Shown in pieces: positions 22,474 through 42,580 of a DNA stretch of 64,000 nucleotides. The notes beneath the pieces were generated by a model. That model had not been told where the DNA came from, made no database searches, and was given only the letters and a program-made list of their open reading frames with translations. The first letter of the stretch is position 1. Each line of letters begins with the position of its first letter. The translations under genes and the position numbers were made by a program. The stretch is from Elusimicrobiota bacterium (lineage in GTDB: Bacteria > Elusimicrobiota > Elusimicrobia > UBA1565), in NCBI GenBank assembly GCA_043827405.1, contig JBDRPD010000083.1:141166-205165 (forward strand), read 5' to 3'.

Positions 22474-23472
22474 ATGATTACATGGCTGTATCGAGTAATG
22501 GTTTTGGTCGGCTGTCCCGCTCTCGTCTACTTTCAGATCGCCAAAGACCCGCGGGCGGTGCTTATCGGGCTCGGCGTCGGCGTCGTCCTCGTGGTGTTTG
22601 AGCTGCTGCTTGAGAAGATCAGTCTTATTACCTTGGTTTCCGGCGTTCTCGGCGCGAGCGCGGGGCTCATTATGGCGAAGCTCGCCGACTATACGGCCTT
22701 CCAGGTCGGCGACGAGGCCTTTTATCATGCCTGGGGCAAGTATTCCGCGCTGCGCTACTTCGCCTTCGGCATCCTCGGCATGTTCGTGACCATCCGCAAG
22801 ATCCTGCCTGAGATCGATACCCTGGACAAGGATATTCTGGCGATTTCCAAGCGCCGGGGATCCAATATGAAGGTCCTCGATACCAGCGCCATTATCGACG
22901 GCCGGGTCGTGGATATCTGCGAGACCCATTTTATCGGCGGCTCGCTGATCGTTCCGCGCTTTGTCCTTAACGCGCTGCAGCACATGGCGGACTCCGGCGA
23001 CAGCATGAAGCGCGCGCGCGGCCGGCGCGGACTCGACATCCTGGCGCGCCTGCAGGAGAACCCGGAAATCCCGCTCAAGATCATCGACAAGGACGTCCCC
23101 GAGATCGAGGACACGGACGCCAAGGTCGTGCGGCTGGCCAAGCAGCTCGGCGGCAAGGTTTTTACGACGGACTTCAATCTCAATAAGATCGCGTCTCTGG
23201 AGGGCGTGCAGGTCCTCAACGTCAACGACCTGACCAACGCGCTCAAGCCGGTGGTGCTGCCGGGCGAGAAGATGTCGCTGTTTGTCATGAAAGAGGGCAA
23301 GGAGCGCAGCCAGGGGGTCGGCTATCTCGACGACGGAACCATGGTGGTCGTCGAAGACGGCAAGTCGTATATCGGCGAACGCATCGATCTTGTGGTTACT
23401 TCCATCCTGCAGACTTCGCAGGGCCGGATGATATTCGGCAAGTTCCAGGAGCCCGAACAGGAGCCGGCCTAG
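22474..23472 (+). CDS. PIN/TRAM-domain membrane protein (YacL family)
   Basis: Four N-terminal TM helices. PIN domain (VLDTSAIIDGRV...TTDFNLNK). C-terminal TRAM-like beta domain. Typical radA-neighbour position. Confidence 0.75.
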   Translation: MITWLYRVMVLVGCPALVYFQIAKDPRAVLIGLGVGVVLVVFELLLEKISLITLVSGVLGASAGLIMAKLADYTAFQVGDEAFYHAWGKYSALRYFAFGILGMFVTIRKILPEIDTLDKDILAISKRRGSNMKVLDTSAIIDGRVVDICETHFIGGSLIVPRFVLNALQHMADSGDSMKRARGRRGLDILARLQENPEIPLKIIDKDVPEIEDTDAKVVRLAKQLGGKVFTTDFNLNKIASLEGVQVLNVNDLTNALKPVVLPGEKMSLFVMKEGKERSQGVGYLDDGTMVVVEDGKSYIGERIDLVVTSILQTSQGRMIFGKFQEPEQEPA

Positions 23473-28078: not shown

Positions 28079-28139
28079 ATTCCCTCCGCAGAAAAGCAAA
28101 GTTAGCTTAAGACTCCGTCCGACGGTTGTCAAGCCCTCA

Positions 28140-29597
28140 TTATTTCGCGGGCCGGACGATGGGCGGGTCGCCGGCCTCTATGATCTCGACGGTCGCGCCC
28201 TTCTCGATCGCGCCGCTGTCGGCGAGCGCCTCGACAATCTGGGTGCCGAACTGCACCCGGCCTTCGGGTTTGAGCGGGCCCAGAGCGAGACCACGGCGCC
28301 CGACGGCCAGCTCGCCCTCCTCCGGAGTGTCGAGCGGCGCGGTGCTCCCCGCGTCGGTGTCGAGCGGGCCGCGATTGAACATCGGCAGGCGGGGGATCAT
28401 GAACAGCAGCGATATGATGCCCGCGACCCCGCCGGCGCCCGCGGCGGCCAGGACCCAGAGAACTTCGCGCAGGCGGTCCCACTCCCAAGGAGCGTGCGGC
28501 ACGACAAAAGGGACGATCATGAGATAGAATCCGATCATCAGGCACAGGAAGCCCCCGATGCCTGCGAGCCCGAAGCCCGGCACCACGAAGATCTCGAGCG
28601 CGATCAGAAACAGTCCGGCCAGGACCAGCAGCAGATCGAACCAGCCCGCCATGTCCGCCAGGTAATGGCCCCAGAAGACCACGATGAAGCAGGCGATGCC
28701 GGCGGCGCCCATCCAGCCGAAGCCGGGCATATGCATCTCGCCGGAGATCAGCATGAAGCCGAGAAATACCAGCAGACTCGTCGCGGCGCTGCCGGTGATG
28801 ATATCAATGAACTTTTCCAGCCCGGTCTTGCGGGCATCGATCAGCGTCGGGTCCGGGATGTTTTCCCGGCGCAGCGCATACGTGATCGAGTCGGCCGGCT
28901 CGGCGAGCCCGTAGCGGATCGCCCGGCGGGCGCTGAGGTTCAGGAGCTTCCCCTTGGCGATGACCAGCTCGGGCTCGCCGCGGATTCGCCCTTCCTTCTT
29001 CAGGCGTTCCAGCTCCGGCGCGGTGACGAAGTGCGTTTCGCCGCCGGCGGTGACGCGATGAACTTCCAGGTCCTTGTCGACCATGGCGGCGGCGAGCGCC
29101 GCCGGGTAATTGTTGCGCTCGGCAAGGGCGCGGAACTTCGCCCGCAGGGCGGAGATGTGCTTCTCTCCCGCCGCCTCCGTTTTGCCGCCGCCGCTCATCA
29201 CGGGAGCGGCGGAGCCGATCGAGGCGCTTGGGGCCATGTAGATTTTGCCGCAGGCGAGCGAGATCAGCGCCCCGGCCGACCAGGCCTTGTCCTCTACCCA
29301 GGCGAATACCGGGATATTGGGCTCCTGCGCCGCGCGGGCGATGTCGAGCGCCGCGTCCACGCGCCCGCCGAAAGTGTCGATGCGCAGGACAACGGCGCGC
29401 GCGTCTTCCCTGCCGGCGAGCGAGCGCCGGACATAGGAGGCGAGGCCATGGGTAATCTCGCCGTCGATATGGATGACCAGAACCTTGCTGCCGGCGGTCG
29501 TGGGAGCGGGTCCGCGGCTGGCGGCGAAGCCGACGGCCGCATAGAGCAGGCCGGCGGCCAATGCGGCCAGCGATCTTGTAAGCGGTTGCGCGTTCAT
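28140..29597 (-). CDS. NfeD-family membrane-bound ClpP-class serine protease with C-terminal OB-fold
   Basis: Signal or TM start MNAQPLTRSLAALAAGLLYAAV. ClpP-like region VLVIHIDGEITHG...DTFGGRVDAALDI...KAWSAGALISLA. Several TM helices, then a C-terminal beta domain. Classic partner of SPFH proteins. ATG overlaps the upstream stop (ATGA). Confidence 0.8.
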   Translation of the reverse strand: MNAQPLTRSLAALAAGLLYAAVGFAASRGPAPTTAGSKVLVIHIDGEITHGLASYVRRSLAGREDARAVVLRIDTFGGRVDAALDIARAAQEPNIPVFAWVEDKAWSAGALISLACGKIYMAPSASIGSAAPVMSGGGKTEAAGEKHISALRAKFRALAERNNYPAALAAAMVDKDLEVHRVTAGGETHFVTAPELERLKKEGRIRGEPELVIAKGKLLNLSARRAIRYGLAEPADSITYALRRENIPDPTLIDARKTGLEKFIDIITGSAATSLLVFLGFMLISGEMHMPGFGWMGAAGIACFIVVFWGHYLADMAGWFDLLLVLAGLFLIALEIFVVPGFGLAGIGGFLCLMIGFYLMIVPFVVPHAPWEWDRLREVLWVLAAAGAGGVAGIISLLFMIPRLPMFNRGPLDTDAGSTAPLDTPEEGELAVGRRGLALGPLKPEGRVQFGTQIVEALADSGAIEKGATVEIIEAGDPPIVRPAK

Positions 29598-31486
29598 GCC
29601 TGAAGGTCCTGCTGCGCCTGTTGGTAGAGGAGCTTGCGTTCCGCCGCGATCATGCCGCGGATGTCCTGCGCGTTCATCTTGAGCTGCCGTCCGAAGGCCA
29701 GCAGGGTGTTCATCTCCGGCCGGGATATCTCGCCGTCGGCGAGGCTCATTTGGATGACGCCGCGGAGGAATATCCGAGCCTCCTCGGGCGTCTTCGGCGC
29801 CGGCACTTCCAGGTGTCCGCTGCGGGCCGCGCTGAGCAGCCCGTCGAGCTTGACCCGCGGTATCGTATGCTTCCTGGCATAGGCCTGCGCGAACGCCAGC
29901 TCCCGCTGGTCGATGCGGCCGTCGAGGATCATCGCCCCGACGAGCACGGCCAGCGCCTGTATGGGCGGCATGGCGCCCGACCAGCCGGCGTCCGCGCCGC
30001 GCGCCGCAACGCTCTCGGCGGCCAGCAGCGGAGTCGGCTGGCGCCACTGGCCGTGGGGCATGATGCCGGTCAGGACCCAGCGGCGGCTGCCGTCGTTGGC
30101 CGGCGAGCCGCAGAACTCGCAGGCGGCCTGCCGGCGCTCCGCGGGCGGCGCGCCGCAGCTCGCGCACAGCAGCGAGCGCAGCCCGGAGCCGGCGTCGGTC
30201 TTGGCGGCGGCCTGGCGGCTAAGGATGAAAACGTGGTGGTTGAGCACCGAGCCCTGAGCGGCGGCTTCGCCGTTATGGACCGCGAATTTCTCGCCGGACC
30301 ATTTGACGAGGACGTGGGCCTTGTCGTCGGGCCGGCCCGCCTCTATCGCGAGGATATCGACGGCGCCCACGGCGGCGCCGCGGTACAGGGCGCGGGTGCG
30401 CGACTGGCTTTCCCGGTGCGCGGCGACCAGCGCCTCCGCGGCTACCGGGACCAGCGAGGAGGCCTCCGGCTCCCAGTGCGCCATCTGCCAGCGCCAGAAG
30501 ACGGCCGAGGCGCGGTCCTCCAGGAACTGAACGTTGAGCGCGGGATCGCGCTGCTTGATCTCCACCAGCCCCGGAATCTGCGCCTCCGAGGTGCGGATGC
30601 GCCATTCGCAGGCTTGGGTGATTTCGGCGAGCACCCAGTCATACTCGCCGGAGCTGACCCAGGAGCCGCAGGCCGCGCATTTGGCGGCGTCGGCGATATC
30701 CAGCGGCGCCCCGCAGTTCGGGCAGAACCCTTCAAGCAGTCCGGGTTTTTTCAGGGTCTGCGCGCCCGGGCGCCGCAGGAAGGACCAGACCTCGATAAAC
30801 TCTTCTTCTTTCCCGGAGCGGTTCTTGACGACGCTGTCGTCGTCCAGCCGCACGTCCTGGTCCACCGCCGAGGCGCGAACGCTTACATGGAGCGTGTCGA
30901 AGTGCGCGTCCGATTCGACATGGACCACGTCGGCTTTGAGAACCCGGACCTCGTGCATGCGGTTGCGGATGCCCATCGCCCGCTGCATGCGGATATAAAT
31001 GGCGAAGCGCTCGTTGATCCCGTCGGAGATGAAGGCGCGCGCCGGGCCCATGTCTTGGTTCGACCAGGCCTCCTGGATGCGCAGGAAGGCCTTCTGCACC
31101 CGGTCGAGAAAGGCGGGCGTGCTGAAGCCCGGGTCGCGCTGATGGATCTTCGCGATGCCGGCCATGATGGCATGGGACTGGGCGCGCGCCGCGCCCTGCA
31201 CGATGGTCCGCTGCGTGCGGCCCTCCCCGTTGATGGCGCCGAATACGCGCAGCATGACGAAGACGCCGATGACGGCGAGCCAGATGACGTTTTCCGTCCG
31301 GCTCATGCGCCGGCTGGAACGGTAGCCGCCGTAGCTGCCGCCGCTGAAACTTCCGCCGCTGAAACCACCGCCGCTGAAGCCTCCGCCGCCGCCCGAATAG
31401 CCGCCGCCGCCGCCGGCGCGGGCGAAGACGATCGGGGGCGCGAACAGGGCGAGCAGAAACAGGGCCAGCGCGAGGCGGCGGATCAC
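29594..31486 (-). CDS. Membrane protein with Gly-rich N-terminus, Tim44-like domain(s), two CxxC zinc ribbons and a C-terminal TerB-like domain
   Basis: Signal-anchor MIRRLALALFLLALFAPPIVFA, then GGGGGYSGGGGGFSGG. Tim44-like region FLDRVQKAFLRIQEAWSNQD...HFDTLHVSV. CPNCG...CAACG and CASCG...CEFCG zinc ribbons. C-terminal TerB-like helices (ILDGRIDQRELAFAQAY...SLADGEISRPEMNTLLAFGRQL). Confidence 0.7.
   Translation of the reverse strand: MIRRLALALFLLALFAPPIVFARAGGGGGYSGGGGGFSGGGFSGGSFSGGSYGGYRSSRRMSRTENVIWLAVIGVFVMLRVFGAINGEGRTQRTIVQGAARAQSHAIMAGIAKIHQRDPGFSTPAFLDRVQKAFLRIQEAWSNQDMGPARAFISDGINERFAIYIRMQRAMGIRNRMHEVRVLKADVVHVESDAHFDTLHVSVRASAVDQDVRLDDDSVVKNRSGKEEEFIEVWSFLRRPGAQTLKKPGLLEGFCPNCGAPLDIADAAKCAACGSWVSSGEYDWVLAEITQACEWRIRTSEAQIPGLVEIKQRDPALNVQFLEDRASAVFWRWQMAHWEPEASSLVPVAAEALVAAHRESQSRTRALYRGAAVGAVDILAIEAGRPDDKAHVLVKWSGEKFAVHNGEAAAQGSVLNHHVFILSRQAAAKTDAGSGLRSLLCASCGAPPAERRQAACEFCGSPANDGSRRWVLTGIMPHGQWRQPTPLLAAESVAARGADAGWSGAMPPIQALAVLVGAMILDGRIDQRELAFAQAYARKHTIPRVKLDGLLSAARSGHLEVPAPKTPEEARIFLRGVIQMSLADGEISRPEMNTLLAFGRQLKMNAQDIRGMIAAERKLLYQQAQQDLQA
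31306..31417 (-). repeat. GGC-rich simple repeat encoding the Gly/Ser-rich segment (GGGGGYSGGGGGFSGGGFSGGSFSGGSYGGY)
   Basis: Runs of gccgcc / ggcggc trinucleotide repeats visible in the DNA. Confidence 0.7.
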
Positions 31487-32748
31487 CGCGGGTTCCCGCC
31501 TTGCTGTTGCTGCTGCTGCCCCATGACCTGATTGAGCATTTCCATGCTTTGACCGAGCATTTCGTTGACGCCGCGCGTGGCTTCGATCATCTCCTTAACG
31601 GTGCCGGCGCGGTCCGCCTTGGGGATATTGGGCAGGGTCTCGACCAATGACTGGCGGATGGGCCCGCTCATTTTCGGCCACTCCTTCACCAGCAGGCTGC
31701 TGGTGCGGCTGTCGAGGAGCAGCAGGGTTTCGTTGGGAGGATGCTGCATTTTCTGGTAGCGCTGCATCTCCTGGATGACGCCCATGGGATTGGTCTGCGC
31801 CTGGTGCATCGCCTGCTGGAAGTCGTTGTTGGCCTGCTCGTCGCCCAGCGCCTGCATCATGGCCGAGGCCGCCTGGATGGCCTGCTGGGGGTTCATCGGC
31901 TGCTGCTGTTGCTGCGTTCCGATGACGGCGGGCGGCCCGCCGAAGGAGGAGCTCTGCTGTGTTGAGATCTGTCCCTGGAAGTTGCCGAGCGACGACTTGA
32001 GGCGCTGGGCGGCTATGGCCGCCGAGATGCTGAGCAGCAGCCAGAAGACCGTTAAGGCGCCGAAGACCAGCCAGGCCTTCTTCTTGTCGACCCGGTGCAG
32101 GCCCGCCGCCGCATGAACGGCAAGGTAGAGCCCGCATAGCTGGGGGATGATCGCTCCGGCATAGGGGATGAGGCCCAGAAGAGAACTAATAGGCATCAGC
32201 GCCGCCATGGCGGCGAAGGCGCCGAAGCTGCCGTTGTAGGAGACGCCGCCGCCGAGGACTTTGCACAGGACGTGGAAGATCGCGGCGCCGATGAAGCTCA
32301 TGATGATCGCCACGATCGGCAGCATGAACAGCCCGCCGGTGGCGGCAGCGATCGTGAAGGGGACCGACTGGGTCTTGGCGTAAACCGTGAAGGCGGACAG
32401 CGGGGCGCTGATCAGCGCCCACAGGATGATGACGACCAGCGGCGGGCCGAAGCCGCCGTTGGGGTTGATGCGGGAAAAGAAAAGCGTGGGCTGCTGGGCC
32501 ATGAATACGGCATTGGCGATCAGCTTGCCGGGCTTGAAATCGATAAACCCGCCGACATCGGCTTCCCGGCCGGGGCCGATGGGCGCCGCGGCGGGCGGCG
32601 GCGGGACGTTTTGTGCCATGACGGCCCGGACCGCTTCCTCGATAGCTTCGGGGGGAAAGCCGTTGCCGGCCAGCGCCGTCTTGAGGCTTTCGATGGGGTA
32701 GCTGCCCATGTTCTGGCGCAGATAGTCGACGATTCTCTGGTCGGGCAT
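31483..32748 (-). CDS. Yip1-domain multi-pass membrane protein with a Gln-rich C-terminal extension
   Basis: Five-TM Yip1-like core (LVVIILWALISAPLSAF...LPIVAIIMSFIGAAIFHVL...). Tail rich in Q (TQQQQQPMNPQQ...QQQQQQGGNPR). The ATG at 32748 is preferred over the TTG at 32784. 4-nt overlap with the downstream gene. Confidence 0.65.
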   Translation of the reverse strand: MPDQRIVDYLRQNMGSYPIESLKTALAGNGFPPEAIEEAVRAVMAQNVPPPPAAAPIGPGREADVGGFIDFKPGKLIANAVFMAQQPTLFFSRINPNGGFGPPLVVIILWALISAPLSAFTVYAKTQSVPFTIAAATGGLFMLPIVAIIMSFIGAAIFHVLCKVLGGGVSYNGSFGAFAAMAALMPISSLLGLIPYAGAIIPQLCGLYLAVHAAAGLHRVDKKKAWLVFGALTVFWLLLSISAAIAAQRLKSSLGNFQGQISTQQSSSFGGPPAVIGTQQQQQPMNPQQAIQAASAMMQALGDEQANNDFQQAMHQAQTNPMGVIQEMQRYQKMQHPPNETLLLLDSRTSSLLVKEWPKMSGPIRQSLVETLPNIPKADRAGTVKEMIEATRGVNEMLGQSMEMLNQVMGQQQQQQGGNPR

Positions 32749-32815
32749 AATAGGCAATATACCGCGCTTTGACGACGGAAGCAAGACCCGGCGGGCCCCC
32801 TAGCGTATTTCCTAT

Positions 32816-34753
32816 ATGCAAGCTATGCTCTTCTCAGCGGTGAAAAAGAAGGGCAATAAAAAGTCGGAAAAATTCGGCACGGTTCTGGGCTGCGCTCCCG
32901 GAAACGTGCCGGTTTACTCGTCGGACTACGGTACGGTCGACAAAGAGCGGCTTCCCACGCGGCATACCTTCCGGAGCTATGTCGATGGGATATTCATGGG
33001 GTACAAATGGCAGTGCGTGGAGTTCGCCCGACGCTGGCTGTACCTGAACCGCGGGTTTGTTTTCGACGATATCGCGATGGCATACGATATATTCCGTCTC
33101 AAATCCGTTCGGGTGGTTAAAGACGGCGCCGTTCTGCCGCTCCACTCGTTCGCCAACGGATCGGCACGGCTTCCCGAACCGGGCTGCCTGCTCATATGGA
33201 ACGAGGGCGGGGAATTCGCGGATGCGGGGCATGTGGCTGTCGTTACGGAAGTTTTTCCCGATCGAATCCGTTTCGTGGAGCAGAATGTCGAGCATGAGTT
33301 ATGGCCGGCAGGACAAAATTATTCCCGGGAGCTGCGCGCAAAAGAAGATGAGAACGGCGGCTACTGGATAGAGTGCTTTTACAGCGGAGCGACCATCCTG
33401 GGCTGGGTCATTCAGACCGGCGATCCGCAGGGGGCGGAAATCTTCCCGGACCTCGATATAGAGCTGCTGAATCTTCAGGCGCGCGAGGTTAAGAACCGCG
33501 GCCAGGCCAACCGATCCTGGCTCAATGTCGCCAATCCCGATGAGGCCGCCTATGTGGCTGTCCAGGGTCACAAGGTGACCGACAGGAAGGACAAGGAGTA
33601 TAAGTATTTTTGTATTTCCGAATCGGCGTACGGCGAGCTCAAGCGGGCGACCAACCAGCTGCATTCCATGTTCATGCACGCCACCGACTATGTGCTGCAG
33701 AATGAAGCGGTGCTGGAGAGGTTTTGCATTCCCCGGCCTCTCTGGTCCAGGCTTCGGCGGTCATGGGACAATCGCCGCAATCAGGCGATAACCGGGAGGC
33801 TTGATTTTTCGGTCTCGGAGAACGGGATAAAAATCTATGAATACAACGCTGATTCCGCCGCCTGCTATATGGAATGCGGAGTCATCCAGACAAAATGGTC
33901 CAAGCACTTCGGCTGCAAGGAAGGATGGTGCGCGGGAGAGAAGCTGCACCGCGAGCTGGTCGACGCCTGGAAGGACAGCGAAGTGGACGGCATCCTGCAT
34001 ATCATGCGGGATAATGATCGCGAGGAGGCTTATCATGCCCTCTTCATGAAAGCGGCGATCGAGCAGGCCGGAATCGAGTGCCGGGTAATCACCGGATGCA
34101 GGGGGCTGTCCTGGGACGCGGACGGACGGGTCATCGATTCGGCGGGCGTTCCCATTCGCTGGGTTTGGAAAACGTGGGCATGGGAAACGGCGCTGGATCA
34201 AATCCGCGCCGAATGCGACGAAGATGATACGCGGGAGCCGCAATCCCTGCTGCGGGGTCCCGCGAGGGGGGCGCCCCGCTTGGTCGACGTGCTGCTGGGA
34301 GAGGATGTTCTGGTTTTTGAGCCCCTCTGGACGCTGATCCCGAGCAACAAGGCGATTCTTCCCGTGCTATGGACCCTGTATCCCGGCCACCCGTACCTGC
34401 TTGATTCACAGTTTGAGCTGACTGCGGAGTTGCGGGGAAAGGGGTTCGTGGCAAAGCCCATCGTGGGGCGCTGCGGGGCCAATATAAGTATTTTCAGCAA
34501 AGACGACTCTCTGGTCTCCCGGACCGGCGGTCAGTTCGAAAAGCGTGAGCAGATCTATCAGGAGTTCTTTCCTCTGCCGAAAATCGACGGCGACAATGTG
34601 CAGGTCGGGACGTTTCCGGTGTCCGGAGTGTTTGCCGGGGCCAACGTCAGAATGGACCCATCTCTCATCCTGGTGTCCGACAGCGACATGCCCGCATTAA
34701 GAGTGGTCAACGACGAGGCGCTGCTGGACGGCGGGCGGCTTAGGGGGTCTTAG
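32816..34753 (+). CDS. gsp: Bifunctional glutathionylspermidine amidase/synthetase
   Basis: N-terminal CHAP amidase (FGTVLGCAPGNVPVYSSDY...KWQCVEFARRW...GHVAVV). C-terminal GSP-synthetase ATP-grasp domain. Length and motif order match E. coli Gss. Confidence 0.88.
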   Translation: MQAMLFSAVKKKGNKKSEKFGTVLGCAPGNVPVYSSDYGTVDKERLPTRHTFRSYVDGIFMGYKWQCVEFARRWLYLNRGFVFDDIAMAYDIFRLKSVRVVKDGAVLPLHSFANGSARLPEPGCLLIWNEGGEFADAGHVAVVTEVFPDRIRFVEQNVEHELWPAGQNYSRELRAKEDENGGYWIECFYSGATILGWVIQTGDPQGAEIFPDLDIELLNLQAREVKNRGQANRSWLNVANPDEAAYVAVQGHKVTDRKDKEYKYFCISESAYGELKRATNQLHSMFMHATDYVLQNEAVLERFCIPRPLWSRLRRSWDNRRNQAITGRLDFSVSENGIKIYEYNADSAACYMECGVIQTKWSKHFGCKEGWCAGEKLHRELVDAWKDSEVDGILHIMRDNDREEAYHALFMKAAIEQAGIECRVITGCRGLSWDADGRVIDSAGVPIRWVWKTWAWETALDQIRAECDEDDTREPQSLLRGPARGAPRLVDVLLGEDVLVFEPLWTLIPSNKAILPVLWTLYPGHPYLLDSQFELTAELRGKGFVAKPIVGRCGANISIFSKDDSLVSRTGGQFEKREQIYQEFFPLPKIDGDNVQVGTFPVSGVFAGANVRMDPSLILVSDSDMPALRVVNDEALLDGGRLRGS

Positions 34754-35639
34754 CCGTCATCGCCAGCTTGAATATCTCGGTCACGTCGCTGGAGAAGGCG
34801 AATTCGAACCGCGGATCCAGCACATAGGCCTTGATTTTCAGCGTCGTGCGCAGCTGCTTTTCCGACGGCGCATCCTGGAACAGCACGACGATCGGCTTGG
34901 CGAGATTTATGTAGCGGGAGGTGACAGCCGCCTCCCATGCGGTGCGTTTCGCCGCGAGCAGGTCGGTTTCCGGCGGCAGCGTGATTTCCGTGACGACCTG
35001 GCAGGTCAGTGCTCCGGAATTGGCGTTCGCTATGATGCGGTTGACGATCTCCGCGTTGGGGACCGTAACCAGATTGTCGTCCGATGTGACGAGCCGCACG
35101 GTGCGCAGCCCAATGCCGACGACCTCGCCGTAGTGTTCTCCGATGCGGATCTTGTCGCCGACCTGGAATGGACGATCCAGGATAATGACCAGCCCGCCGA
35201 AGATATTCTTTAAGATGTCCTGGGAGGCAAAACCGATGGCGACTCCGGAAGCGGTTAGTACGGCGAAAAACGCGTCCCTGGTCGGAGAGAATACCCAGCG
35301 GACGATGATATAGGCGGTGCCCGCCCATACCAGTACGCGGATGATCGGAATGCCCTTTTTGAGGAAGCGGTAGCGCGCGCTGCGTTCCCCGATAAGGTCG
35401 AGCAGGTAAGTGCTGGTTAAGATGGCCAGCCAGGCGAGTGCGAACAAGAGCGCCGCGATGAGGATCTTTAGGGAAAGCCTTGACGCGCCGCGGCGGACCT
35501 CGCCCAGTTTCTGCTGCCCCGTGACCGGCGTCGAAGCGGCCTCCGTCGTCGGCACGGAGACGGCGGCGTGAGATGTCGCGACGGCCGCGAAAGCGGTGGG
35601 GACCAGAAGGACGATAATGAGCGGCAGCGCTTTATGCAT
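34740..35639 (-). CDS. Small-conductance mechanosensitive channel (MscS family)
   Basis: Signal or TM start MHKALPLIIVLLVPTAFA. MscS core (GFASQDILKNIFGGLVIILDRPFQVGDKIRIGEHYGEVVGIGLRTVRL). The 3' end is convergent with and overlaps gsp by 14 nt. Confidence 0.88.
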   Translation of the reverse strand: MHKALPLIIVLLVPTAFAAVATSHAAVSVPTTEAASTPVTGQQKLGEVRRGASRLSLKILIAALLFALAWLAILTSTYLLDLIGERSARYRFLKKGIPIIRVLVWAGTAYIIVRWVFSPTRDAFFAVLTASGVAIGFASQDILKNIFGGLVIILDRPFQVGDKIRIGEHYGEVVGIGLRTVRLVTSDDNLVTVPNAEIVNRIIANANSGALTCQVVTEITLPPETDLLAAKRTAWEAAVTSRYINLAKPIVVLFQDAPSEKQLRTTLKIKAYVLDPRFEFAFSSDVTEIFKLAMTAKTP

Positions 35640-38091
35640 GGATGAAGTTTTTGTCCCGGAGCGCTTCCAGCACCGGGCCCAGCAGGATGGGATTGGGCGC
35701 ATACCGCGGTTCGGCGCCTTCCTCGCGGCGGCACGACAAAATCCGCCGGTGCGTCAGGTAGTCCAGCAAGGTCCGGCTCTCGGTGAGGGGCGAGCGCAGC
35801 AGCTGTGAGAGGAGCGGTGCGGTGAGGTGGTCGTGCTCGAGCGTGTAGAGCATCCCGAACAGCTCGCTCAGGGTGAGGTCGCCCAGAATTTCCTTACGGA
35901 AGGGCGAGAGCGGCGCGACGTGGACTTTCCGCCGGCCCTCGCTCTGGGTTGAGCGCAGCCAATAGTACAGAGCGGCGTGCAGGTTGCGTCCGGCGGCGGC
36001 ATGCAGAGTATCGAAGAACTCCTCGCACAGGATCGCCTGGCGCTTCTCCCGGTCTTTAGCCTGGCGCAGCTTCCACCGGATATCGGCCGACAGGCTGGGG
36101 CCCTCAGTGAACTCTAGATCGTAGCCGCTGACCTCGTGACGAGCCATGAGCGCGGATTCGAGTTCCGTCCGGTCGAGGCCTCGGAGCATGATGCACGAGT
36201 CGAAGCGTTTAAAGATATCAAAGGTCCGGTCCAGGTAATCCCATCCGGCCTGTGAAAAAGTGATGATCCAACACGCCTTTCCCTCGGTGTTGGAGAGCAG
36301 TGAGAAAAGGGAGCGTACAGCGTCGAAGCCGCCGACGCGCCGGAGGTGGAGCATGCTTCCGCCCTCGATGACGAACACCGGCCTGTCGGGCAAGGCGCGA
36401 ATCGCGGAGACGAGGTTCGGGAGGGCATTCTCCCGGACCGGGGTGCTCCATCCGATGGATGTCGAGATGAGCTCGACAAAATCGGACTCGGAGCTTAGAT
36501 GTTTTTGGAGCTGTATCCACGCCGGCTTTTGGTCGGGGAAGTGTCTTTGCAGTGCGCAGCGGGTGAAGCTGGTCTTGCCCAGCCCCACCGGGCCGATGAC
36601 GGCGACGGCCGCCGACAGGCCGGAGTTGAACCGCTGGCGGATGGCCCGCATGGCGGGCATGAATTTCTCGCATCCGGTCAGGAAATCCTCGTCGGTTAGG
36701 GGCTCGAAGCGGAACAGGCGGCGGTAGAGGAGCGGGGTATTCTTGAGCGCGAACTCAATGGTCGCCTCCTCCAGAGTCGCTTGGGAGAGTTCGATCTGCG
36801 GCTTCTTGATGCCCAGGGCGGTTTGCAGGCCGGCAAAGGCTTCCCGCCCGCGGGCACGCAAGGCCTCTGTCCAGGAACGGGTGGAGTGGAGTTTGCGTTG
36901 GCCCCGTTCTTCGAACAGACGCCAGGTCGACAGAAGCGATGCGGTCGCGACCGCCACCCGTTCGCCGAACGTATCGGCGACGTCACAATCGCGACGAAGC
37001 TGCTTGCCTGCCCGCTCGACCGCCGTCGACACGGCGGCGGCGAAAGCCGTGGTGAGAGTTTCTATTTCTTCGGGCAGCTTCTCGATGCGGGCTCCGGTGC
37101 GGTCGATCCCGTCGAGCGCGAGCTGGAGGGCTTCGCCCGGCGGTTCCGCGGCGGTTCCCTCGTCGCCGTCAAGCAACGCTCCCGCGGAGTGCAGATTAAA
37201 TCTGGCGATCTTGGCGCTCTCCCGCATCTGGGTGGAGGACTCCGCATAATCCCGGTCCAGCGTTTCAGCGGGTGGGCGAAGATCATCGATCATGTCCTCC
37301 AGCAGGATGCGGACCACGATGGAGCGCAGCGGAATGCGGCGCACTCTTCCCTGGGCTCTGGCTTTGCCGGTCAAGCTGGTCAGAAACAGCGTCAACCGGC
37401 GCTGCAGCTTGAACGCACGCACGAACAGGGTGTCTCCCGGTTCGGCGCCGAGCTGTTCCTTTGTCTGACGAACCCGGTATTCGAGAGGAACGCTTTGCGC
37501 AAGCTTGAGGAGCTCTGCGCGCAGGTGTCGAACCGCGGATAGGCCCAAAGGCGCCGCAGCGGCGGTGTGGCGATGTTCGGATGCCGCGCTGAGTAGGAGG
37601 TGCCCTATCATGCGGGCTTCGCTTTCCAGGAGTTCAATTTGGGCGGATGATTCCTTATCCCGGAAGGCCTTTTTTAACCGGTCGGCGGAAAGCCGGCACT
37701 CTTCGAGAATCGAGCGGGAGACCTGCTGCGCCCGCGCACCCGCTTGTTCCGTCGCTTTAGCTGAGACGGCGGCGGCGGCTCGGGCGAGGTCATCAAGGAC
37801 CAAAGAGACGCTTTCTTCGAGGTGCTGGGATTGGTCGTCAGCGTCGGCGCCGGGTATCTCGGGGGGGAAGGCTGTGACCCAGAACTGGCGCAGTTGGTTC
37901 CAGAGGGCCCGCCGCACGACCAGGGCGAGGCGGGTCACACGGTCGAGCAACCAATAGGCGAGAAGCGCTCCTACCGCGAGCGCCGCGAGCTTGGCGCCAT
38001 ACGCATAGTCTCCCAGTACGGGTAGGGGTTGGTCGAGCCAAGCCAGCAGCGCGTGCCAGGAAAGATGCAGCGGTCGCAGATGCGTCATCAC
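35632..38091 (-). CDS. Large (819 aa) protein: N-terminal TM helix, long helical region, C-terminal P-loop AAA+/STAND-like ATPase
   Basis: TM LAALAVGALLAYWLL. Walker A VIGPVGLGKTS. Walker-B-like RPVFVIEGG. Sensor-1-like CWIITFSQ. Stop overlaps the MscS ATG by 8 nt. Confidence 0.7.
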   Translation of the reverse strand: MMTHLRPLHLSWHALLAWLDQPLPVLGDYAYGAKLAALAVGALLAYWLLDRVTRLALVVRRALWNQLRQFWVTAFPPEIPGADADDQSQHLEESVSLVLDDLARAAAAVSAKATEQAGARAQQVSRSILEECRLSADRLKKAFRDKESSAQIELLESEARMIGHLLLSAASEHRHTAAAAPLGLSAVRHLRAELLKLAQSVPLEYRVRQTKEQLGAEPGDTLFVRAFKLQRRLTLFLTSLTGKARAQGRVRRIPLRSIVVRILLEDMIDDLRPPAETLDRDYAESSTQMRESAKIARFNLHSAGALLDGDEGTAAEPPGEALQLALDGIDRTGARIEKLPEEIETLTTAFAAAVSTAVERAGKQLRRDCDVADTFGERVAVATASLLSTWRLFEERGQRKLHSTRSWTEALRARGREAFAGLQTALGIKKPQIELSQATLEEATIEFALKNTPLLYRRLFRFEPLTDEDFLTGCEKFMPAMRAIRQRFNSGLSAAVAVIGPVGLGKTSFTRCALQRHFPDQKPAWIQLQKHLSSESDFVELISTSIGWSTPVRENALPNLVSAIRALPDRPVFVIEGGSMLHLRRVGGFDAVRSLFSLLSNTEGKACWIITFSQAGWDYLDRTFDIFKRFDSCIMLRGLDRTELESALMARHEVSGYDLEFTEGPSLSADIRWKLRQAKDREKRQAILCEEFFDTLHAAAGRNLHAALYYWLRSTQSEGRRKVHVAPLSPFRKEILGDLTLSELFGMLYTLEHDHLTAPLLSQLLRSPLTESRTLLDYLTHRRILSCRREEGAEPRYAPNPILLGPVLEALRDKNFIHA

Positions 38092-38207: not shown

Positions 38208-39737
38208 ATGACCAAGCAGCCATTGGCCGGGCTCCATCGCCCGGTCTCCCCCGACGCTCTGACCTGCGCCGGCTTGGCGACCGGTTTCACGCTGCTGTAT
38301 TTAAGCTTCTTAAGCCGGTATTACGTCTTCGAGGGCTTGGCGCGCGCTATGCCGATCGAGGCCGGCCGGTTCCGGGAGCTCTTCAACGCCAACCATATGC
38401 TCTACGGCACCGTGGGCTGGTGCTTCCACGGCCTGCTCAAGATGCTGGGCGTCGTCCAGCTGTCGGTCCATTCACTGCAGCAGTTGGATGCGCTTCTCGG
38501 CGCCGCGGGCGTCGGGCTGTTTTTTCTGACTTTGCGCCGGCTGGATGCGCCGCGCATCACCGCCGCTTTGTGGGCCGCGGCGCTGGGCTTCTTTCTCGGC
38601 TATTGGCTCTGGAGCATCGATGCCGAAAATTACATCTTTTCCACTTTTCTCCTGCAGCTCAACTTCTTCGCTCTGGTCCGTTATACGCGGCAAAGAAAGG
38701 GGCATCCCGTCCTGCTGGGCGCCCTGCATGCCCTGGCCGTCATGGGACATATCGTCAATGGCGTTTTCGGCGTGGTCGTTTTATGGGTCATCTATCGCAC
38801 CCACCGGCGCAACTGGCTGCGGCCGGCACTCCTCTATGTCGCCGCGGTAGCCGTTCTCACCTTGGGCGCCTATGCCTTGACGCTGGCGGTGATCGTTCGT
38901 CCGCAAACCATGGACGAGGCGAGGCGTTGGTTTATGGGCAGTGCGGGGAGAACCGATGGGGCATGGAATTGGCGCGGCGGCTATGGCTGGACCAAGCTGG
39001 GGCAATGGCTGACGTCGTCGCTCAATGTCATCTGCTCTTTCAAGAGCGGCTATCAGAACCCGCCTCCCTGGCCGCTGGCCGGTCTCTGGCAATGGATCGC
39101 GCGGCTGATGCTCGCCGGTTTCGCCGCCGCCGCTCTATGGAACCGCCGCCGGATATGGCGCGAGAGCGGAACCGAGCTGGGAGCCTGCCTGCTGTGGGTG
39201 GGGGCCTATGCCTGTGTATTCCTCTCCTGGGAACCGCATATGCTGATGTATCACGTCACCAATACGGTCCCGTTCTGCGTCATCCTCTACCTTTCGTCGC
39301 GGGCGATGCGCCTGCCGGCGCCGCGGCAGTACGCGGCCGCCGGCGTCTTTACCCTTTCTTTAGGCTTAGCCAACTTTTCGGCCGAGGTCCTGCCGCGATC
39401 TTATCGGGAGAACAACCCCGCTCTCATGGCTATGGATTTTATCCGGAACCATACCGAGGACCGGGCCTGGATCGCGACCGACCTCGACCTGGATCAGCTC
39501 TATATCCCCTTCTTCGCCCGGCGGCGGCCGCTGCTTCTCGGCCGTTACGGGGGGAGCTCCGGGCATGAGCGGCTCTCAGGCGAACTGGACCGGCTGCTGC
39601 AGGACGGCCAACGGCTCTACCTGACGTCGAATGTGCTCGCTATTGAGGAGTGGCGCCGGTACTTCGGCGGCGCTCAGCTTGAGGTCGCGGCGCGTTATGA
39701 GGACGGTTTTACGCTCTACCGCCTGCGTGGCAGGTAA
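38208..39737 (+). CDS. Polytopic membrane protein, probable GT-C-fold glycosyltransferase
   Basis: About 11 predicted TM helices with a C-terminal soluble domain. No precise family assignable from sequence alone. Confidence 0.6.
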   Translation: MTKQPLAGLHRPVSPDALTCAGLATGFTLLYLSFLSRYYVFEGLARAMPIEAGRFRELFNANHMLYGTVGWCFHGLLKMLGVVQLSVHSLQQLDALLGAAGVGLFFLTLRRLDAPRITAALWAAALGFFLGYWLWSIDAENYIFSTFLLQLNFFALVRYTRQRKGHPVLLGALHALAVMGHIVNGVFGVVVLWVIYRTHRRNWLRPALLYVAAVAVLTLGAYALTLAVIVRPQTMDEARRWFMGSAGRTDGAWNWRGGYGWTKLGQWLTSSLNVICSFKSGYQNPPPWPLAGLWQWIARLMLAGFAAAALWNRRRIWRESGTELGACLLWVGAYACVFLSWEPHMLMYHVTNTVPFCVILYLSSRAMRLPAPRQYAAAGVFTLSLGLANFSAEVLPRSYRENNPALMAMDFIRNHTEDRAWIATDLDLDQLYIPFFARRRPLLLGRYGGSSGHERLSGELDRLLQDGQRLYLTSNVLAIEEWRRYFGGAQLEVAARYEDGFTLYRLRGR

Positions 39738-39762
39738 GGGTATTGACGACTTGATAAATTAA

Positions 39763-39780
39763 TGGTATATTATAATATAC
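39763..39780. promoter_or_regulatory. 18-bp perfect AT-rich palindrome (GGTATATTATAATATACC), candidate operator/promoter of the HTH-NTase module
   Basis: Self-complementary sequence contains TATAAT. Sits in an AT-rich island immediately upstream of the ATG at 39789. Confidence 0.55.
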
Positions 39781-39788
39781 CACAAATT

Positions 39789-40352
39789 ATGCTTGAATTT
39801 AAACAAATAACCAGCCTAAGGAAGAAGAACGAGGTGTCAGAGCGAGGGCTCGCGCGTATAGTCGGCATGAGCCGGATAACGGTCCGAAAATTCGTATCGG
39901 GAGATGGGAATCCCACCCTGCGTACGGTCGAGAAGTTGGCGAAGGGATTCGGGCGCAAGGCGTGCGTCCTCTTGGAGCCGGATGCCGATTGCTGGGCGGA
40001 AATGTCTACGGTAGCCGTTTCGATGCGGACCGCCGCCGGCGAGGATTGGAAGATCGCTTTTTTCGATCTTGTCGACGCCTTGCGCAGTACGCTGGACTAC
40101 CGTCTCGTCCTGCTGCCGCCGGTGCGGAAATTGGCGGACCGTCCGCGGGCGCTGCTGGCGTCCATGGTGTGCGAGCTTTGTCATGAATGCGGATTCACGC
40201 CTCCTTCCTGGGCGGACCGGACATATTTTTTGGACCAGCCATGGTTCGTCGCGGGGATGCGATCGTTAAAGGCTTGCGCAATTCAGGAATCGCCGCTGTG
40301 CTTCCGCCGGAATAATATATTCGTGCTGGCGAATTTCATGCACCGCGTTTAA
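39789..40352 (+). CDS. XRE-family HTH protein with a Cys-rich C-terminal domain (CELCHEC)
   Basis: Cro/C1-type HTH (ERGLARIVGMSRITVRKFVSGDGNPTLRTVEKLAKGFG). About 120-aa C-terminal domain of unknown fold containing a CxxCxxC motif. Confidence 0.65.
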   Translation: MLEFKQITSLRKKNEVSERGLARIVGMSRITVRKFVSGDGNPTLRTVEKLAKGFGRKACVLLEPDADCWAEMSTVAVSMRTAAGEDWKIAFFDLVDALRSTLDYRLVLLPPVRKLADRPRALLASMVCELCHECGFTPPSWADRTYFLDQPWFVAGMRSLKACAIQESPLCFRRNNIFVLANFMHRV

Positions 40353-40353
40353 T

Positions 40354-40881
40354 ATGCTGACGACGAAGGAAATCCGCTCTCTCTTCGCCGAGCTCAATGT
40401 CCGTCTGGCGGAGGCGGGTATGCGCGGGGAGATCGGTATCGTGGGCGGCGCCGCGATGTGCCTTGTCTACAACGCGCGCGAATCGACGCGGGATGTCGAC
40501 GCCGTGTTCGCTCCGGCGGGTGAAATCCGCGCTATGGCGGCCAGGATCGCGCAAGAGAAGGGGATCGGAAAAGACTGGCTCAACGATGCCGTCAAAGGAT
40601 ATATCGAAAAGGGATTCGAGCGCGAGATCGTGCTCCAGCTGTCGCATCTGCATGTCTGGACGCCCGAGCCGCGCTACCTGCTGGCGATGAAGTGCGTCAG
40701 CGCGCGTTTCGACTCGCATGACGGCGACGATATCCGTTTCTTGATCCGGCATCTTGGTTTACGGAAGATCGACCAGGTCTTGTCCGTCATCGAGAAATAC
40801 TATCCGCGGGATCGCGTGCCGGCGAAGACGAGCTTCTTCCTGGAAGAGGTGATTGAGGGATTGAATGACCGAAGCGAATAA
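40354..40881 (+). CDS. Pol-beta-superfamily nucleotidyltransferase-like protein (DUF6036-like minimal NTase)
   Basis: hGG-x13-DVD motif (IGIVGGAAMCLVYNARESTRDVDAVF) typical of minimal nucleotidyltransferases. 175 aa. Starts 2 nt after the HTH gene stop. Its 3' end overlaps the next gene by 17 nt. Confidence 0.65.
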   Translation: MLTTKEIRSLFAELNVRLAEAGMRGEIGIVGGAAMCLVYNARESTRDVDAVFAPAGEIRAMAARIAQEKGIGKDWLNDAVKGYIEKGFEREIVLQLSHLHVWTPEPRYLLAMKCVSARFDSHDGDDIRFLIRHLGLRKIDQVLSVIEKYYPRDRVPAKTSFFLEEVIEGLNDRSE

Positions 40882-42580
40882 ATCCCTTTACGCCGCGGTC
40901 CTCCTGATATTCCTTTCGGGGTTTTGCGCGATCCGGGCTGTGGACCGCCATTCCCTGACCTACGACGCCGTTAAATACCCCGCTTCGGGCTACGACTATC
41001 TGCGCACCCTGCGGCTGCGGACCGATCCCGAGAACCCGCCGGTCGGCAAGGTCCTGACCGCCCTGCCCTTCCTGATTATCGACGCCGACCCTCCCCAGCT
41101 GACCGACGGCTCCGATGAACGGGGCTTCGACACCGGCTGGCGCTTCTTCTTTCGCAACAAGGTTCCCGGCGATGTGCTCGCCTACTACGCCCGTCTGCCC
41201 GCGGTCGCCGCCGGGATGCTGCTGGCGCTGACGCTGTTTCTCTTCGCCCGGCGGCGCTTCAGCGGTTGGGGTTCGCTGGTCGCCTTGGTCTTTCTGCTCG
41301 CCGGGCCGATGTACCGGGCGCTGACGACTTTGGCGACGACCGACATCTTCCTGGCGCTGTTTTTTCTGTCGGCGGTCTATTGGCTCGACAGGGAGCTGGA
41401 GGGCGAGAGGCCCAATCAGCACTACCTAAGCGGAGCGGGGATCTTCGCGGCGGCGGCGGTGCTGACCAAATTCTCGGGCCTGCTGTTTTATCCATTGGCC
41501 GCCGCTGCCGTTCTGCGCCGGCGCCGGCTCATGCTGGGAATCCTGGATCTGATCGTCCTCGGCATGCCGCTGCTGATTCTCAGCACCATGCTCTACGGCT
41601 CCGATTTCGGCCGCTTGTGGGAGGGAGTGCTGTTTCAGAAGACGGTGCTCTCCCGGGGGCCGCACCTGACTTTCTTCTGGGATGTCTTGGAGAAGCGGGC
41701 CTGGCCGCAGTACTATTTGGTCTCGTTTTTCCTCAAGACGCCGTATCCCTTCCTGCTGGCGCTGGCCGCCGGCCTTTTCTTTTGGGTTCGCACCCCGGAA
41801 CGCCGCCAGATCGTCCTGGTGGCGGCGCCGTTTTTGCTCTTTCTGGCGGCGGCGAGCGGCAACCGCTTCTACGCCACGCGCTACCTGTTCCCCGTCTATC
41901 CTCTGCTGGCTTTGACCGCGGCGGCGGCCTGGGACTTCGGCCGCCGGCGCGGCAAGGTCCTGATCCTGATTTTGGCCGCCTGGCAGGTTGGGGAAGCAGC
42001 CTGGGCCTATCCGCATTACCTTTCCTACATGAACCTGCCGTGGCGGGCGCAGGGCCACCGCTACCTGGCCAACTCGGATTTCGACTGGGGCCAGGACTTG
42101 CCGGCGCTGGCTGATTTCCTGACGCTGGAGAGGCGGCCGCCGCTGCAGCTCTGCTACTTCGGCACCTCCGATCCCGAGGCTTGGGGCATCGAGGCGCAGC
42201 AGCTGGCAACGGTCTCCAAGTCCTATGTCTCGGACACGGTGCTGCCGTTGGCGCCGGAGCGGGAGCTCCTGGCGGTAAGCGCCGGCTGCCGGCAGTACAT
42301 GACCGTGCGCGCGGGTGCGGAGACGCTGCGCGCCTGGGCCTGGCTCGATAAGCGGCGGCCGATCAAGGTCGTGGCGGGCACTTTCTTCATCTATGATATC
42401 CGCGACGACGCCGAGGCGCATGGACGTATCGGCCAGCTGCATGCCGCGCAGGGCGACCTCCGCAAAGCCCTGCGCGAGGCCCAGCGGGTTCTCGAGATCG
42501 AACCCGGCAGCGCCGAGGGCAAGGCCTTCCTCTCCTTCGTGCGCGGGCGAATGGGCGGTGAGGCAGGTTTGATACAATGA
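40865..42580 (+). CDS. GT-C glycosyltransferase of the PMT/ArnT type (GT39/GT83-like) with C-terminal TPR motif
   Basis: N-terminal DxD-like loop after TM1. 11-13 TM helices with ArnT/PMT-like topology. C-terminal HGRIGQLHAAQGDLRKALREAQRVLEIEPGS TPR. Confidence 0.7.
   Translation: MTEANKSLYAAVLLIFLSGFCAIRAVDRHSLTYDAVKYPASGYDYLRTLRLRTDPENPPVGKVLTALPFLIIDADPPQLTDGSDERGFDTGWRFFFRNKVPGDVLAYYARLPAVAAGMLLALTLFLFARRRFSGWGSLVALVFLLAGPMYRALTTLATTDIFLALFFLSAVYWLDRELEGERPNQHYLSGAGIFAAAAVLTKFSGLLFYPLAAAAVLRRRRLMLGILDLIVLGMPLLILSTMLYGSDFGRLWEGVLFQKTVLSRGPHLTFFWDVLEKRAWPQYYLVSFFLKTPYPFLLALAAGLFFWVRTPERRQIVLVAAPFLLFLAAASGNRFYATRYLFPVYPLLALTAAAAWDFGRRRGKVLILILAAWQVGEAAWAYPHYLSYMNLPWRAQGHRYLANSDFDWGQDLPALADFLTLERRPPLQLCYFGTSDPEAWGIEAQQLATVSKSYVSDTVLPLAPERELLAVSAGCRQYMTVRAGAETLRAWAWLDKRRPIKVVAGTFFIYDIRDDAEAHGRIGQLHAAQGDLRKALREAQRVLEIEPGSAEGKAFLSFVRGRMGGEAGLIQ

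Follow-up and report, generated by a model that had tools for sequence, protein, structure and literature searches.

This study focused on a pair of overlapping genes in a 64,000-nucleotide (nt) stretch of an Elusimicrobiota genome (assembly GCA_043827405.1, contig JBDRPD010000083.1, positions 141,166 to 205,165; hereafter the window), one encoding a large P-loop ATPase and the other a channel of the MscS family. The pair is a widespread two-gene module that carries no name, and it has now been seen in Elusimicrobiota, Gemmatimonadota, Bacteroidota (Flavobacteriales), Calditrichota and Marinimicrobia. We put at about one half the probability that the ATPase serves as an accessory, regulatory nucleotide-switch subunit of a dedicated MscS channel, acting in ion and turgor homeostasis. 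The evidence suggests a form of channel control not studied so far, and speaks against a device for phage defence.

Gene structure and junction

The two genes lie on the minus strand and share a short overlap:

35632–38091, minus strand: MscS-associated ATPase gene, 819 amino acids (aa) from GTG 38091, as given in the list of open reading frames (ORFs)
34740–35639, minus strand: partner MscS-family channel gene, 299 aa, start ATG 35639–35637, PF00924
35632–35639, minus strand: ATPase/MscS overlap of 8 nt, ATGCATAA, read directly from the sequence

The ATPase gene stops with TAA at 35634–35632, and the ATG of the channel gene is found inside its last codons (...CATCC-ATG-CAT-AA), the junction reading ...TTC ATC CAT GCA TAA in the ATPase frame. 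An earlier note on this DNA, prepared from the sequence alone, had described this 8-nt overlap of TAA and ATG, and L001 (ATGATTAA) and L002 (ATGCGTGA), the closest orthologous loci, retain the register. The note had also considered that the true channel start could be an in-frame codon further upstream, making the overlap an artefact. A longer channel ORF from ATG 35702 was rejected as a product of the ORF listing, and no in-frame ATG, GTG or TTG occurs upstream of the MscS start in L001 or L002. Since both orthologues lack an upstream start codon and share the register, the overlap is a real, conserved junction. The start of the ATPase may differ by one codon from the ORF list, as the NCBI hypothetical protein ABIJ96_14425, from an Elusimicrobiota metagenome-assembled genome, is 100% identical to the window ATPase at a length of 818 aa, which fits ATG 38088, one codon downstream of GTG 38091. 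No riboswitch or other Rfam element was detected in the window or in 19 related loci.

At its other end, the channel gene meets a gene on the plus strand (32816–34753) for a bifunctional glutathionylspermidine synthase/amidase (CHAP and GSP_synth domains), which converges on it so that the 3' ends overlap by 14 nt (34740–34753).

Conservation of the adjacency

The size of the ATPase family was at first concealed by the search method. A word-indexed homologue search returned only five relatives, even with alignments as queries, and a large family was exposed by an exhaustive search of representatives: profile matches among 50%-identity cluster representatives numbered 3,195 at E ≤ 1e-3 and 1,163 at E ≤ 1e-30, mostly proteins of about 1,000 aa that match profile positions of about 240–811. 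Members are annotated merely as 'hypothetical' or 'ATP-binding protein', and those with a named source come from Flavobacteriales, Calditrichaceae, Marinimicrobia/FCB, KSB1, Deferribacteres, Gemmatimonadota and Elusimicrobiota.

A motif scan of genome contigs, with patterns that were too narrow, gave five loci, and a scan of metagenomes, which used a six-sequence alignment and had nothing but the ATPase motif RH[ER][VLI]SGY as its key, gave 57 more. Altogether 67 loci, all retrieved by way of the ATPase alone, were scanned with hidden Markov models (HMMs) of MscS and of the ATPase. An MscS gene stands directly beside the ATPase gene, on the same strand, in 57 of them (51 downstream, 6 upstream), typically at a distance of −13 to +13 nt. 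The other ten are truncated: either no more than about 300 nt of contig remain beyond the ATPase, or the ATPase lacks its 5' end and is of the high-GC type in which MscS lies upstream. Not one of the 67 loci has both flanks present and MscS missing. The earlier note had proposed a search for this adjacency in relatives and would have given up the functional pairing had orthologues never been found beside MscS; instead, the adjacency holds in every orthologue and distant relative that could be assessed, the remaining loci being cut by contig ends.

Gene order is not fixed. Each of the three relatives that were found first has an overlapping MscS neighbour, with the ATPase gene leading by an 8-nt overlap in L001 and L002, and with the MscS gene leading by a 4-nt overlap in L003. 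The former order is that of Elusimicrobiota and of most metagenome loci (those named being Flavobacteriales, Calditrichaceae and Marinimicrobia/FCB), and the latter, with its 4-nt overlap, is that of Gemmatimonadota genomes. The flip between phyla means that the adjacency has survived rearrangement. The most divergent branch of the family also keeps an MscS-like neighbour, and beside the long forms fused to a CPA2-type antiporter (KSB1 and Deferribacteres records) MscS adjoins wherever the flanks can be read.

The nucleotide-binding module

Structure prediction supports a genuine AAA+/STAND-like P-loop module in the C-terminal half of the ATPase, with the following parts:

36184–36669, minus strand: AAA+ nucleotide-binding core, about residues 475–636 (alpha/beta core of the AlphaFold model, predicted local distance difference test (pLDDT) score 80–93; Foldseek)
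36568–36594, minus strand: Walker A, GPVGLGKTS, residues 500–508 (by sequence position)
36358–36378, minus strand: Walker B strand, VFVIEGG, residues 572–578, with the single acidic residue E576
36253–36270, minus strand: sensor-1-type strand, WIITFS, residues 608–613 (strand 607–613 of the model)
36121–36147, minus strand: family signature MARHEVSGY in the lid domain, residues 649–657, which served to retrieve the loci
35653–35895, minus strand: C-terminal winged-helix domain, residues 733–813 (AlphaFold)

The AlphaFold model has a mean pLDDT of 71, rising to 80–92 over residues 480–819, and in this half shows a P-loop core of five strands, then a helical lid, and at the C-terminus a winged helix (helices 741–752, 758–765 and 769–781, hairpin 785–799, helix 801–813). 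The Walker A, Walker-B-like and sensor-1-like motifs picked out in the earlier note are all present, and the model places all three where they are expected in an AAA+ protein. Walker A, which conforms to GxxxxGK[ST], lies on a strand-loop-helix between strand 494–500 and helix 506–517, and Walker B is a hydrophobic strand (VFVIE, 572–576) ending in an acidic residue. The window protein has the canonical K506, T507 and E576; the usual second acidic position is occupied by Gly, as in the rest of its clade.

When the model was compared with the Protein Data Bank (PDB) using Foldseek, Orc1/Cdc6 initiators came first (1e-8 to 1e-6) and Apaf-1 next (1e-5), with further matches to TnsC and MuB (1e-5 to 1e-4) and to a plant TIR-NLR, and weaker ones to ClpB, NSF and RuvB. 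Core, lid and winged helix are all recovered by this comparison, the winged helix falling inside the Orc1/Cdc6 and Apaf-1 alignments. By sequence, the window ATPase matched no family of Pfam or NCBIfam at E ≤ 0.1 to 1 and gave no usable match to PADLOC or PDB sequences; the family profile found no solved relative among PDB sequences, and neither Pfam nor NCBIfam holds a model specific to the family. AAA_16 is matched by 23 of 33 diverse relatives. Relatives also give weak matches to nSTAND models (nSTAND1/5/6), ATPase_2 and ORC-CDC6-like, and two of them match TIGR02928 (orc1/cdc6) weakly. Some relatives exceed the Pfam cut-offs, namely P0004 with 34.2 bits on AAA_16 (cut-off 32.6) and the L007 protein with 28.9 bits on AAA_22 (cut-off 27). 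Since the window protein itself is below the thresholds of curated sequence models, its AAA+ membership is a matter of homology transfer together with structure. The label 'AAA+/STAND-like' given to it earlier was therefore apt for the C-terminal half, and the feared outcome that its Walker motifs would align to no P-loop family did not come about. The two comparisons then proposed turned out differently: Foldseek recovered the fold, and of the HMMER models named (AAA_16, NACHT, KAP_NTPase and AAA_22), AAA_16 and AAA_22 are passed by relatives and none by the window protein.

Hallmarks of some neighbouring classes are missing from the protein. No C-terminal repeat sensor of the STAND type (TPR, WD40 or LRR) was found with Pfam, and the protein ends 6 residues past the last helix of the winged helix. 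It does not fit the KAP NTPases, as its hydrophobic segment is only N-terminal and far from the NTPase, and it has no KAP_NTPase match (one orthologue gave E=0.3, which is not meaningful). It does not fit BrxC/BrxD of BREX (PF10923) either; no BREX genes are nearby, and PF10923 was matched only by P0004 (23.7 bits over 52 residues around the P-loop) and, in the set of 33 relatives, by one.

Conservation of the active site was surveyed in about 214–220 aligned family sequences, the count varying by column. The P-loop glycines G503 and G505 are invariant, and the Walker A lysine column (K506) holds K in 56%, R in 21%, A in 14%, and T or I in 6% of 214 sequences. The Walker B glutamate E576 is present in 203/217, followed by a variable residue (N, D, G or H). 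W608 is found in 217/219 and T or S at position 611 in 190/220; in the lid, R651 and G656 are found in all 220 sequences and H652 in 217 of these, and W711 is invariant or nearly so. R584 is nearly invariant (R 174, K 37) and sits before sensor 1, not at the classical position of an arginine finger. In the winged-helix region, H753 is conserved in 201/218 and is a candidate for the MHD-type histidine that contacts the bound nucleotide in STAND NTPases. With the Walker A lysine replaced in 44% of members, and the P-loop glycines and the RH.VSGY signature kept in nearly all, the family fits better as a nucleotide-binding switch or scaffold than as a motor, hydrolysis being probably dispensable for many members. 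Loss of the lysine with retention of the flanking glycines also suggests that many members may bind nucleotide without hydrolysing it, or do neither.

The N-terminal half and three architectures

Four features lie ahead of the AAA+ core:

37945–38001, minus strand: probable N-terminal membrane anchor, YGAKLAALAVGALLAYWLL, residues 31–49 (hydropathy and orthologue alignment)
36937–37842, minus strand: elongated helical-bundle domain, residues 84–385 (AlphaFold)
37171–37203, minus strand: conserved motif RFNLHSAGALL, residues 297–307, within the helical domain (alignments A1–A6)
36712–36735, minus strand: conserved motif P-x-x-Y-x-R-L-F, residues 453–460, directly before the ATPase core

The single transmembrane (TM) helix that had been read at the start of the protein is borderline in the window sequence itself (Kyte-Doolittle mean 1.56, with low AlphaFold confidence in this part), and is evident in its orthologues, where the aligned segment is clearly hydrophobic (1.96–3.13) and a clear TM segment is found in P0002, P0003, P0007, P0009, P0013 and P0016. 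Such an anchor is restricted to one clade. The family occurs in three forms: soluble proteins of about 1,000 aa, which are the majority; proteins of about 800 aa with one N-terminal TM segment, which form the clade of the window; and long proteins of about 1,400–1,700 aa (around 15 of 222 family sequences) with an N-terminal region of 7–12 TM helices. In several of the long members, Pfam and NCBIfam identify this region as a CPA2-type Na_H_Exchanger.

The roughly 400 aa of helical sequence noted earlier between anchor and ATPase are matched in the model by long helices spanning residues 84–200 and 255–385 (about 300 aa), predicted with high confidence; the individual helices 84–145, 148–179, 255–308 and 339–385 have pLDDT values of about 90, and the domain was also modelled separately. 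Foldseek matched it to no solved fold in the PDB, the best E-value of 0.018 not being significant, and designed bundles, dynamin stalks and ClyA-like toxins were rejected as non-specific matches. Within the RFNLHSAGALL motif, F298 is invariant and N299 invariant or nearly so, and in the motif before the core P453 and Y456 are invariant and F460 nearly invariant across the 33 relatives.

The partner channel and its co-inheritance

The assignment of the partner to MscS is solid by sequence comparison, and it is predicted to conduct as a channel. It matches PF00924, and so the MS_channel beta-domain, at 2.1e-20 (73.1 bits, cut-off 20.2), as well as the NCBIfam models for MscS, MscK and MscM. It aligns to the solved MscS structure 7dlu over residues 56–257, from TM1 into the cytoplasmic domain, and to the cores of MscK, MscM and YnaI. 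As in MscS there are three TM segments (57–75, 99–117 and the Gly/Ala-rich pore helix TM3 at 124–154), followed by DRPFQVGD. Two of its features can be placed on the map:

35178–35270, minus strand: pore-lining TM3, residues 124–154, aligned to TM3 of solved MscS and followed by DRPFQVGD
35565–35639, minus strand: signal-peptide-like N-terminus, residues 1–25, with a hydrophobic segment at 4–22 and presumed cleavage

N-termini similar to the latter occur in the partner MscS proteins of L001, L002, L014, L024 and L032.

The partners form a distinct, ATPase-linked subfamily that is marked by the motifs QDILKN, GE.nC.V and KAYV.D.R.EF, with the TM3 consensus G.a.GfA.QDiLKNifGG. The second MscS paralogues, often encoded next in the operon, lack these motifs. 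The partner is co-inherited with the ATPase, as judged from their parallel divergence: across 45 pairs, the identities of the MscS proteins and of the ATPases correlate with r=0.73, a value reached by 0 of 2000 Mantel permutations. The channel is the more conserved of the two: over the C-terminal 230 aa, the window MscS shares 45–52% identity with the partners from other phyla, against only 28–33% for the ATPases.

A second MscS gene, much more divergent, was seen in at least 13 loci (L012–L014, L016, L018, L019, L022, L023, L026, L027, L032, L052 and L057) and usually comes right after the partner gene. In L001 the second MscS gene (6638–7522, minus strand) lies upstream of the ATPase gene on the opposite strand, and none was found within the 64 kb of the window.

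Genomic context of the family

Ion-transport genes recur beside the module. A TrkH gene is located immediately upstream of the long forms with N-terminal TM regions in three divergent branches, and a CorA gene is adjacent in 12 loci, including L002, whose ATPase is 51% identical to that of the window. One low-GC subclade has retained the order purB, M3 peptidase, outer membrane protein, ATPase, MscS (with a second MscS in some) and CorA, down to 47% identity between the ATPases. In the window, most of the neighbours that could be identified are housekeeping or membrane-maintenance genes, namely the SPFH-NfeD-Tim44-like-Yip1 operon and the genes for glutathionylspermidine synthase, two PMT_2 glycosyltransferases, CysS, a SpoU methylase and a CDF transporter. 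A small HTH-DUF6036 pair is the exception. The GC content of the window gives no sign of an island.

Two further observations concern these loci. Giant fusions of a CPA2 antiporter, the helical domain and the ATPase (L009 1144–6174, L043 2202–6719 and L058–L063) have TrkH directly upstream and MscS directly downstream, and so form a three-gene cation-transport cluster. In L046 (6693–7238) and nine other loci of the low-GC subclade, a conserved 181-aa protein without a Pfam match follows MscS (and CorA, if there is one) as gene +3 or +4.

Proposed function and alternatives

It is proposed that the two genes form a self-contained, co-translated module, in which the ATPase would be a cytoplasmic, membrane-tethered switch. 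Its parts would be an N-terminal anchor, the long bundle of helices, and an AAA+ core of Orc1/Cdc6-like and STAND-like type together with its lid and winged helix. The anchor would keep it at the membrane (in relatives the fused CPA2 antiporter would do so, or nothing), where it would bind the MscS heptamer from the cytoplasm. Depending on ATP or ADP, its conformation or oligomeric state could then set whether, or how easily, the channel opens, and the release of solutes would thereby be tied to the energy or ion status of the cell, within K+, Mg2+ and turgor homeostasis. A regulated channel was one of two readings offered in the earlier note, and it fits the evidence. It draws on the ion-transport context (CPA2 fusions, TrkH, CorA and the second MscS), the conserved overlap and adjacency with its flipped order, the distinct MscS subfamily, the switch-type fold, the stable synteny of one subclade and the housekeeping neighbours.

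A number of points weigh against the proposal. The ion-transport theme comes from relatives, since neither CorA, TrkH nor CPA2 was found near the pair within the 64-kb window. In BLAST comparisons the flanks of the window share no synteny with other loci, even those of the closest relatives, and with flanks so different the two genes may travel together. Immune sensing is a frequent role of STAND-like ATPases. The helical domain is presumed to touch the channel or the membrane, yet it resembles no known fold, so that the interface is a guess. ATP hydrolysis cannot be a universal mechanism if, as the alignments indicate, many members have lost the Walker A lysine. As products of a single motif-based scan, the loci do not sample the family at random. 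Gene structure, fold class, strict adjacency, co-inheritance with the MscS subfamily and the ion-transport context are what the data show; that the two proteins touch, that control runs from ATPase to channel, and what the physiological signal would be, we infer. Finally, the literature searches turned up no description of an MscS channel paired with an AAA+/STAND ATPase. To that extent the earlier remark that the arrangement is not a standard one stands, although it is by no means peculiar to the window.

The strict pairing would be equally well explained by a flow of information in the other direction, with the MscS-like protein sensing membrane tension or fluidity and the ATPase acting as a transducer on DNA, through its winged helix, or on neighbouring transporters. 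We regard this mechanosensory signalling as improbable, though the strongest of the alternatives. A C-terminal winged helix of the Orc1/Cdc6 type speaks for it, and in those proteins the winged helix binds DNA; conservation that is switch-like rather than motor-like is in line with it too. MscS-like proteins have been proposed as tension sensors that influence regulators, and a precedent is given by cmaX-cfrX-cmpX of P. aeruginosa, in which CmpX is linked to the activity of SigX (PMC7641640). However, the winged helix of STAND and ORC modules is built into the nucleotide switch itself and does not have to contact DNA, a membrane anchor or a fused antiporter of 10–12 TM helices is awkward for a DNA-binding output, and no conserved target gene or extra output domain was seen among the family loci. 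Rather less probable still is a role as dedicated chaperone, responsible for assembly, stability or removal of the heptameric channel but not for its gating. Tight translational coupling does suggest a co-translational partnership, AAA+ proteins commonly remodel complexes, and ClpB, NSF and RuvB are among the weaker Foldseek matches; but the fold is nearest to the clade of initiators and STAND switches and not to pore-loop unfoldases, and a Walker A lysine missing in 44% of members is incompatible with an obligatory motor. Ordinary MscS channels, moreover, assemble without such a factor.

The second reading of the earlier note was abortive infection or another form of conflict, with a STAND-like ATPase that senses phage and opens the MscS channel as a depolarising effector. 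A module of nucleotide-binding domain (NBD), lid and winged helix (WH) is indeed related to Apaf-1 and NLR-type proteins, relatives give weak nSTAND1/5/6 matches, the N-terminal domain is variable, flanks differ between close relatives, an HTH-DUF6036 gene pair is nearby, and Tmn, a membrane P-loop NTPase, is reported to defend by ion export (PMC13001434). Support for this reading was nevertheless not found. PADLOC-DB 2.0 gave no meaningful match, the window yielding only Cas6d at E=0.045 (noise) and the 33 relatives two marginal mads matches, and searches of phage, plasmid and IMG/VR collections gave no homologues. The genes that recur nearby are those of ion transport and housekeeping, with no defence genes among them, the synteny of one subclade is stable, there is no repeat-type sensor domain, and the partner belongs to a conserved orthologous MscS subfamily rather than being a swappable effector. 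A defence role is accordingly very unlikely. Mere coincidence of two functionally unrelated neighbours is effectively refuted: the genes adjoin at all loci that could be assessed, in at least five groups of phylum rank, their order flips between groups, and the two proteins have diverged in parallel.

Beyond a regulatory subunit as such, a bolder version of the channel-control proposal can be tentatively put forward, at a clearly lower probability: the STAND/Orc-like switch might form a ring matched to the MscS heptamer and docked on its cytoplasmic cage, turning a tension valve into one that is gated or licensed by ATP/ADP or ion status, and fused or clustered versions might also coordinate CPA2, TrkH and CorA as a single turgor and cation-homeostasis machine. 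Relatives of the apoptosome and TnsC types can be heptameric.

Relation to known systems

The best structural match to the C-terminal 340 aa of the window protein is provided by the Orc1/Cdc6 initiators (PDB 2qby, 1fnn and 7jgr), over about 400 columns, but identity is only 12–15% and no PDB match is obtained at the sequence level even with the family profile. The window protein also differs from them in being bacterial and membrane-tethered, in having a 400-aa helical bundle ahead of the module, in being paired with a channel, and in lacking a replication context. With STAND NTPases (Apaf-1, NLR, Avs and bNACHT) it has in common the NBD-helical-WH switch architecture, but unlike them it has no C-terminal repeat sensor, fused effector or defence context, and it stays below every Pfam threshold.

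Other systems resemble the proposed module in logic. MscK, MscM, YnaI and bCNG likewise add, to the pore and cage that form the core of MscS, an element by which gating is modulated. Their extra domains are fused in cis, as additional TM helices, periplasmic domains or domains that bind cyclic nucleotide monophosphates, whereas here the added element is a separate 819-aa ATPase from an overlapping gene. In KtrAB, a separate cytoplasmic subunit that binds ATP/ADP sets the activity of a membrane ion pathway (PMC11078986); KtrAB/TrkAH are like the proposed module in logic and not in fold, and TrkH genes adjoin some family members. Their regulatory subunit is an RCK/KTN Rossmann protein and not AAA+, and their membrane partner is an SKT-type K+ transporter and not MscS. 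In the cmaX-cfrX-cmpX cluster of P. aeruginosa, an MscS-like protein, proposed as a sensor of membrane tension, is genetically linked to a CorA-type Mg2+ channel (PMC7641640), which recalls the 12 loci in which CorA adjoins the module; the cluster is without an AAA+ ATPase, however, and the window is without CorA. Tmn and the KAP-type NTPases, as membrane-associated P-loop NTPases tied to ion flux (PMC13001434), are the nearest precedent for an abortive-infection role. Tmn belongs to the YobI/KAP family and has its TM segments within the NTPase protein; here there is no meaningful KAP_NTPase match and no defence signal.

Other genes of the window

Several genes around the pair, or further from it, deserve mention:

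3489–9998, plus strand: giant ORF of 2,169 aa near the start of the window
23469–25541, minus strand: 690-aa protein with TPR repeats and a C-terminal eukaryotic-type Ser/Thr kinase domain
26939–32784, minus strand: run of abutting or overlapping genes for SPFH/Band7 with double zinc ribbons, NfeD, a Tim44-like/zinc-ribbon protein (630 aa) and a Yip1-domain membrane protein
38208–39737 and 40865–42580, plus strand: two PMT_2-type membrane glycosyltransferases
39762–40881, plus strand: HTH_3 (XRE-type) gene followed 1 nt later by a DUF6036 nucleotidyltransferase gene, a toxin-antitoxin-like pair

The run at 26939–32784 looks like a membrane-microdomain operon with unusual extra members. The two PMT_2 genes flank the HTH-DUF6036 pair and are upstream of, and divergent from, the ATPase gene. 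In L001, a pair of the same Pfam families (14888–16256) is found about 4 kb from the module and has no BLAST similarity to the HTH-DUF6036 pair of the window. In the CPA2-fusion locus L009, a 944-aa PMT_2 protein (7080–9914) is encoded directly after MscS, likewise without BLAST similarity to the PMT_2 proteins of the window, which may be coincidence. Recurrence of PMT_2 and HTH-DUF6036 neighbours at the level of Pfam families is therefore unproven.

Implications

MscS channels are the textbook case of direct gating by membrane tension without partners. In the sampled loci, a dedicated MscS subfamily is essentially never encoded without a large AAA+/STAND-like switch protein. The components are of known kinds, and nucleotide-binding regulatory subunits on channels are already known in principle. 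A new principle of mechanosensitive-channel control is a speculative but real prospect, with a chance of perhaps one in four. Should the ATPase control the channel, the module would represent a new principle of MscS-type regulation together with a non-immune, non-replicative job for the Orc/STAND switch fold; should it instead read out the state of the channel, the module would represent a new bacterial mechanotransduction pathway.

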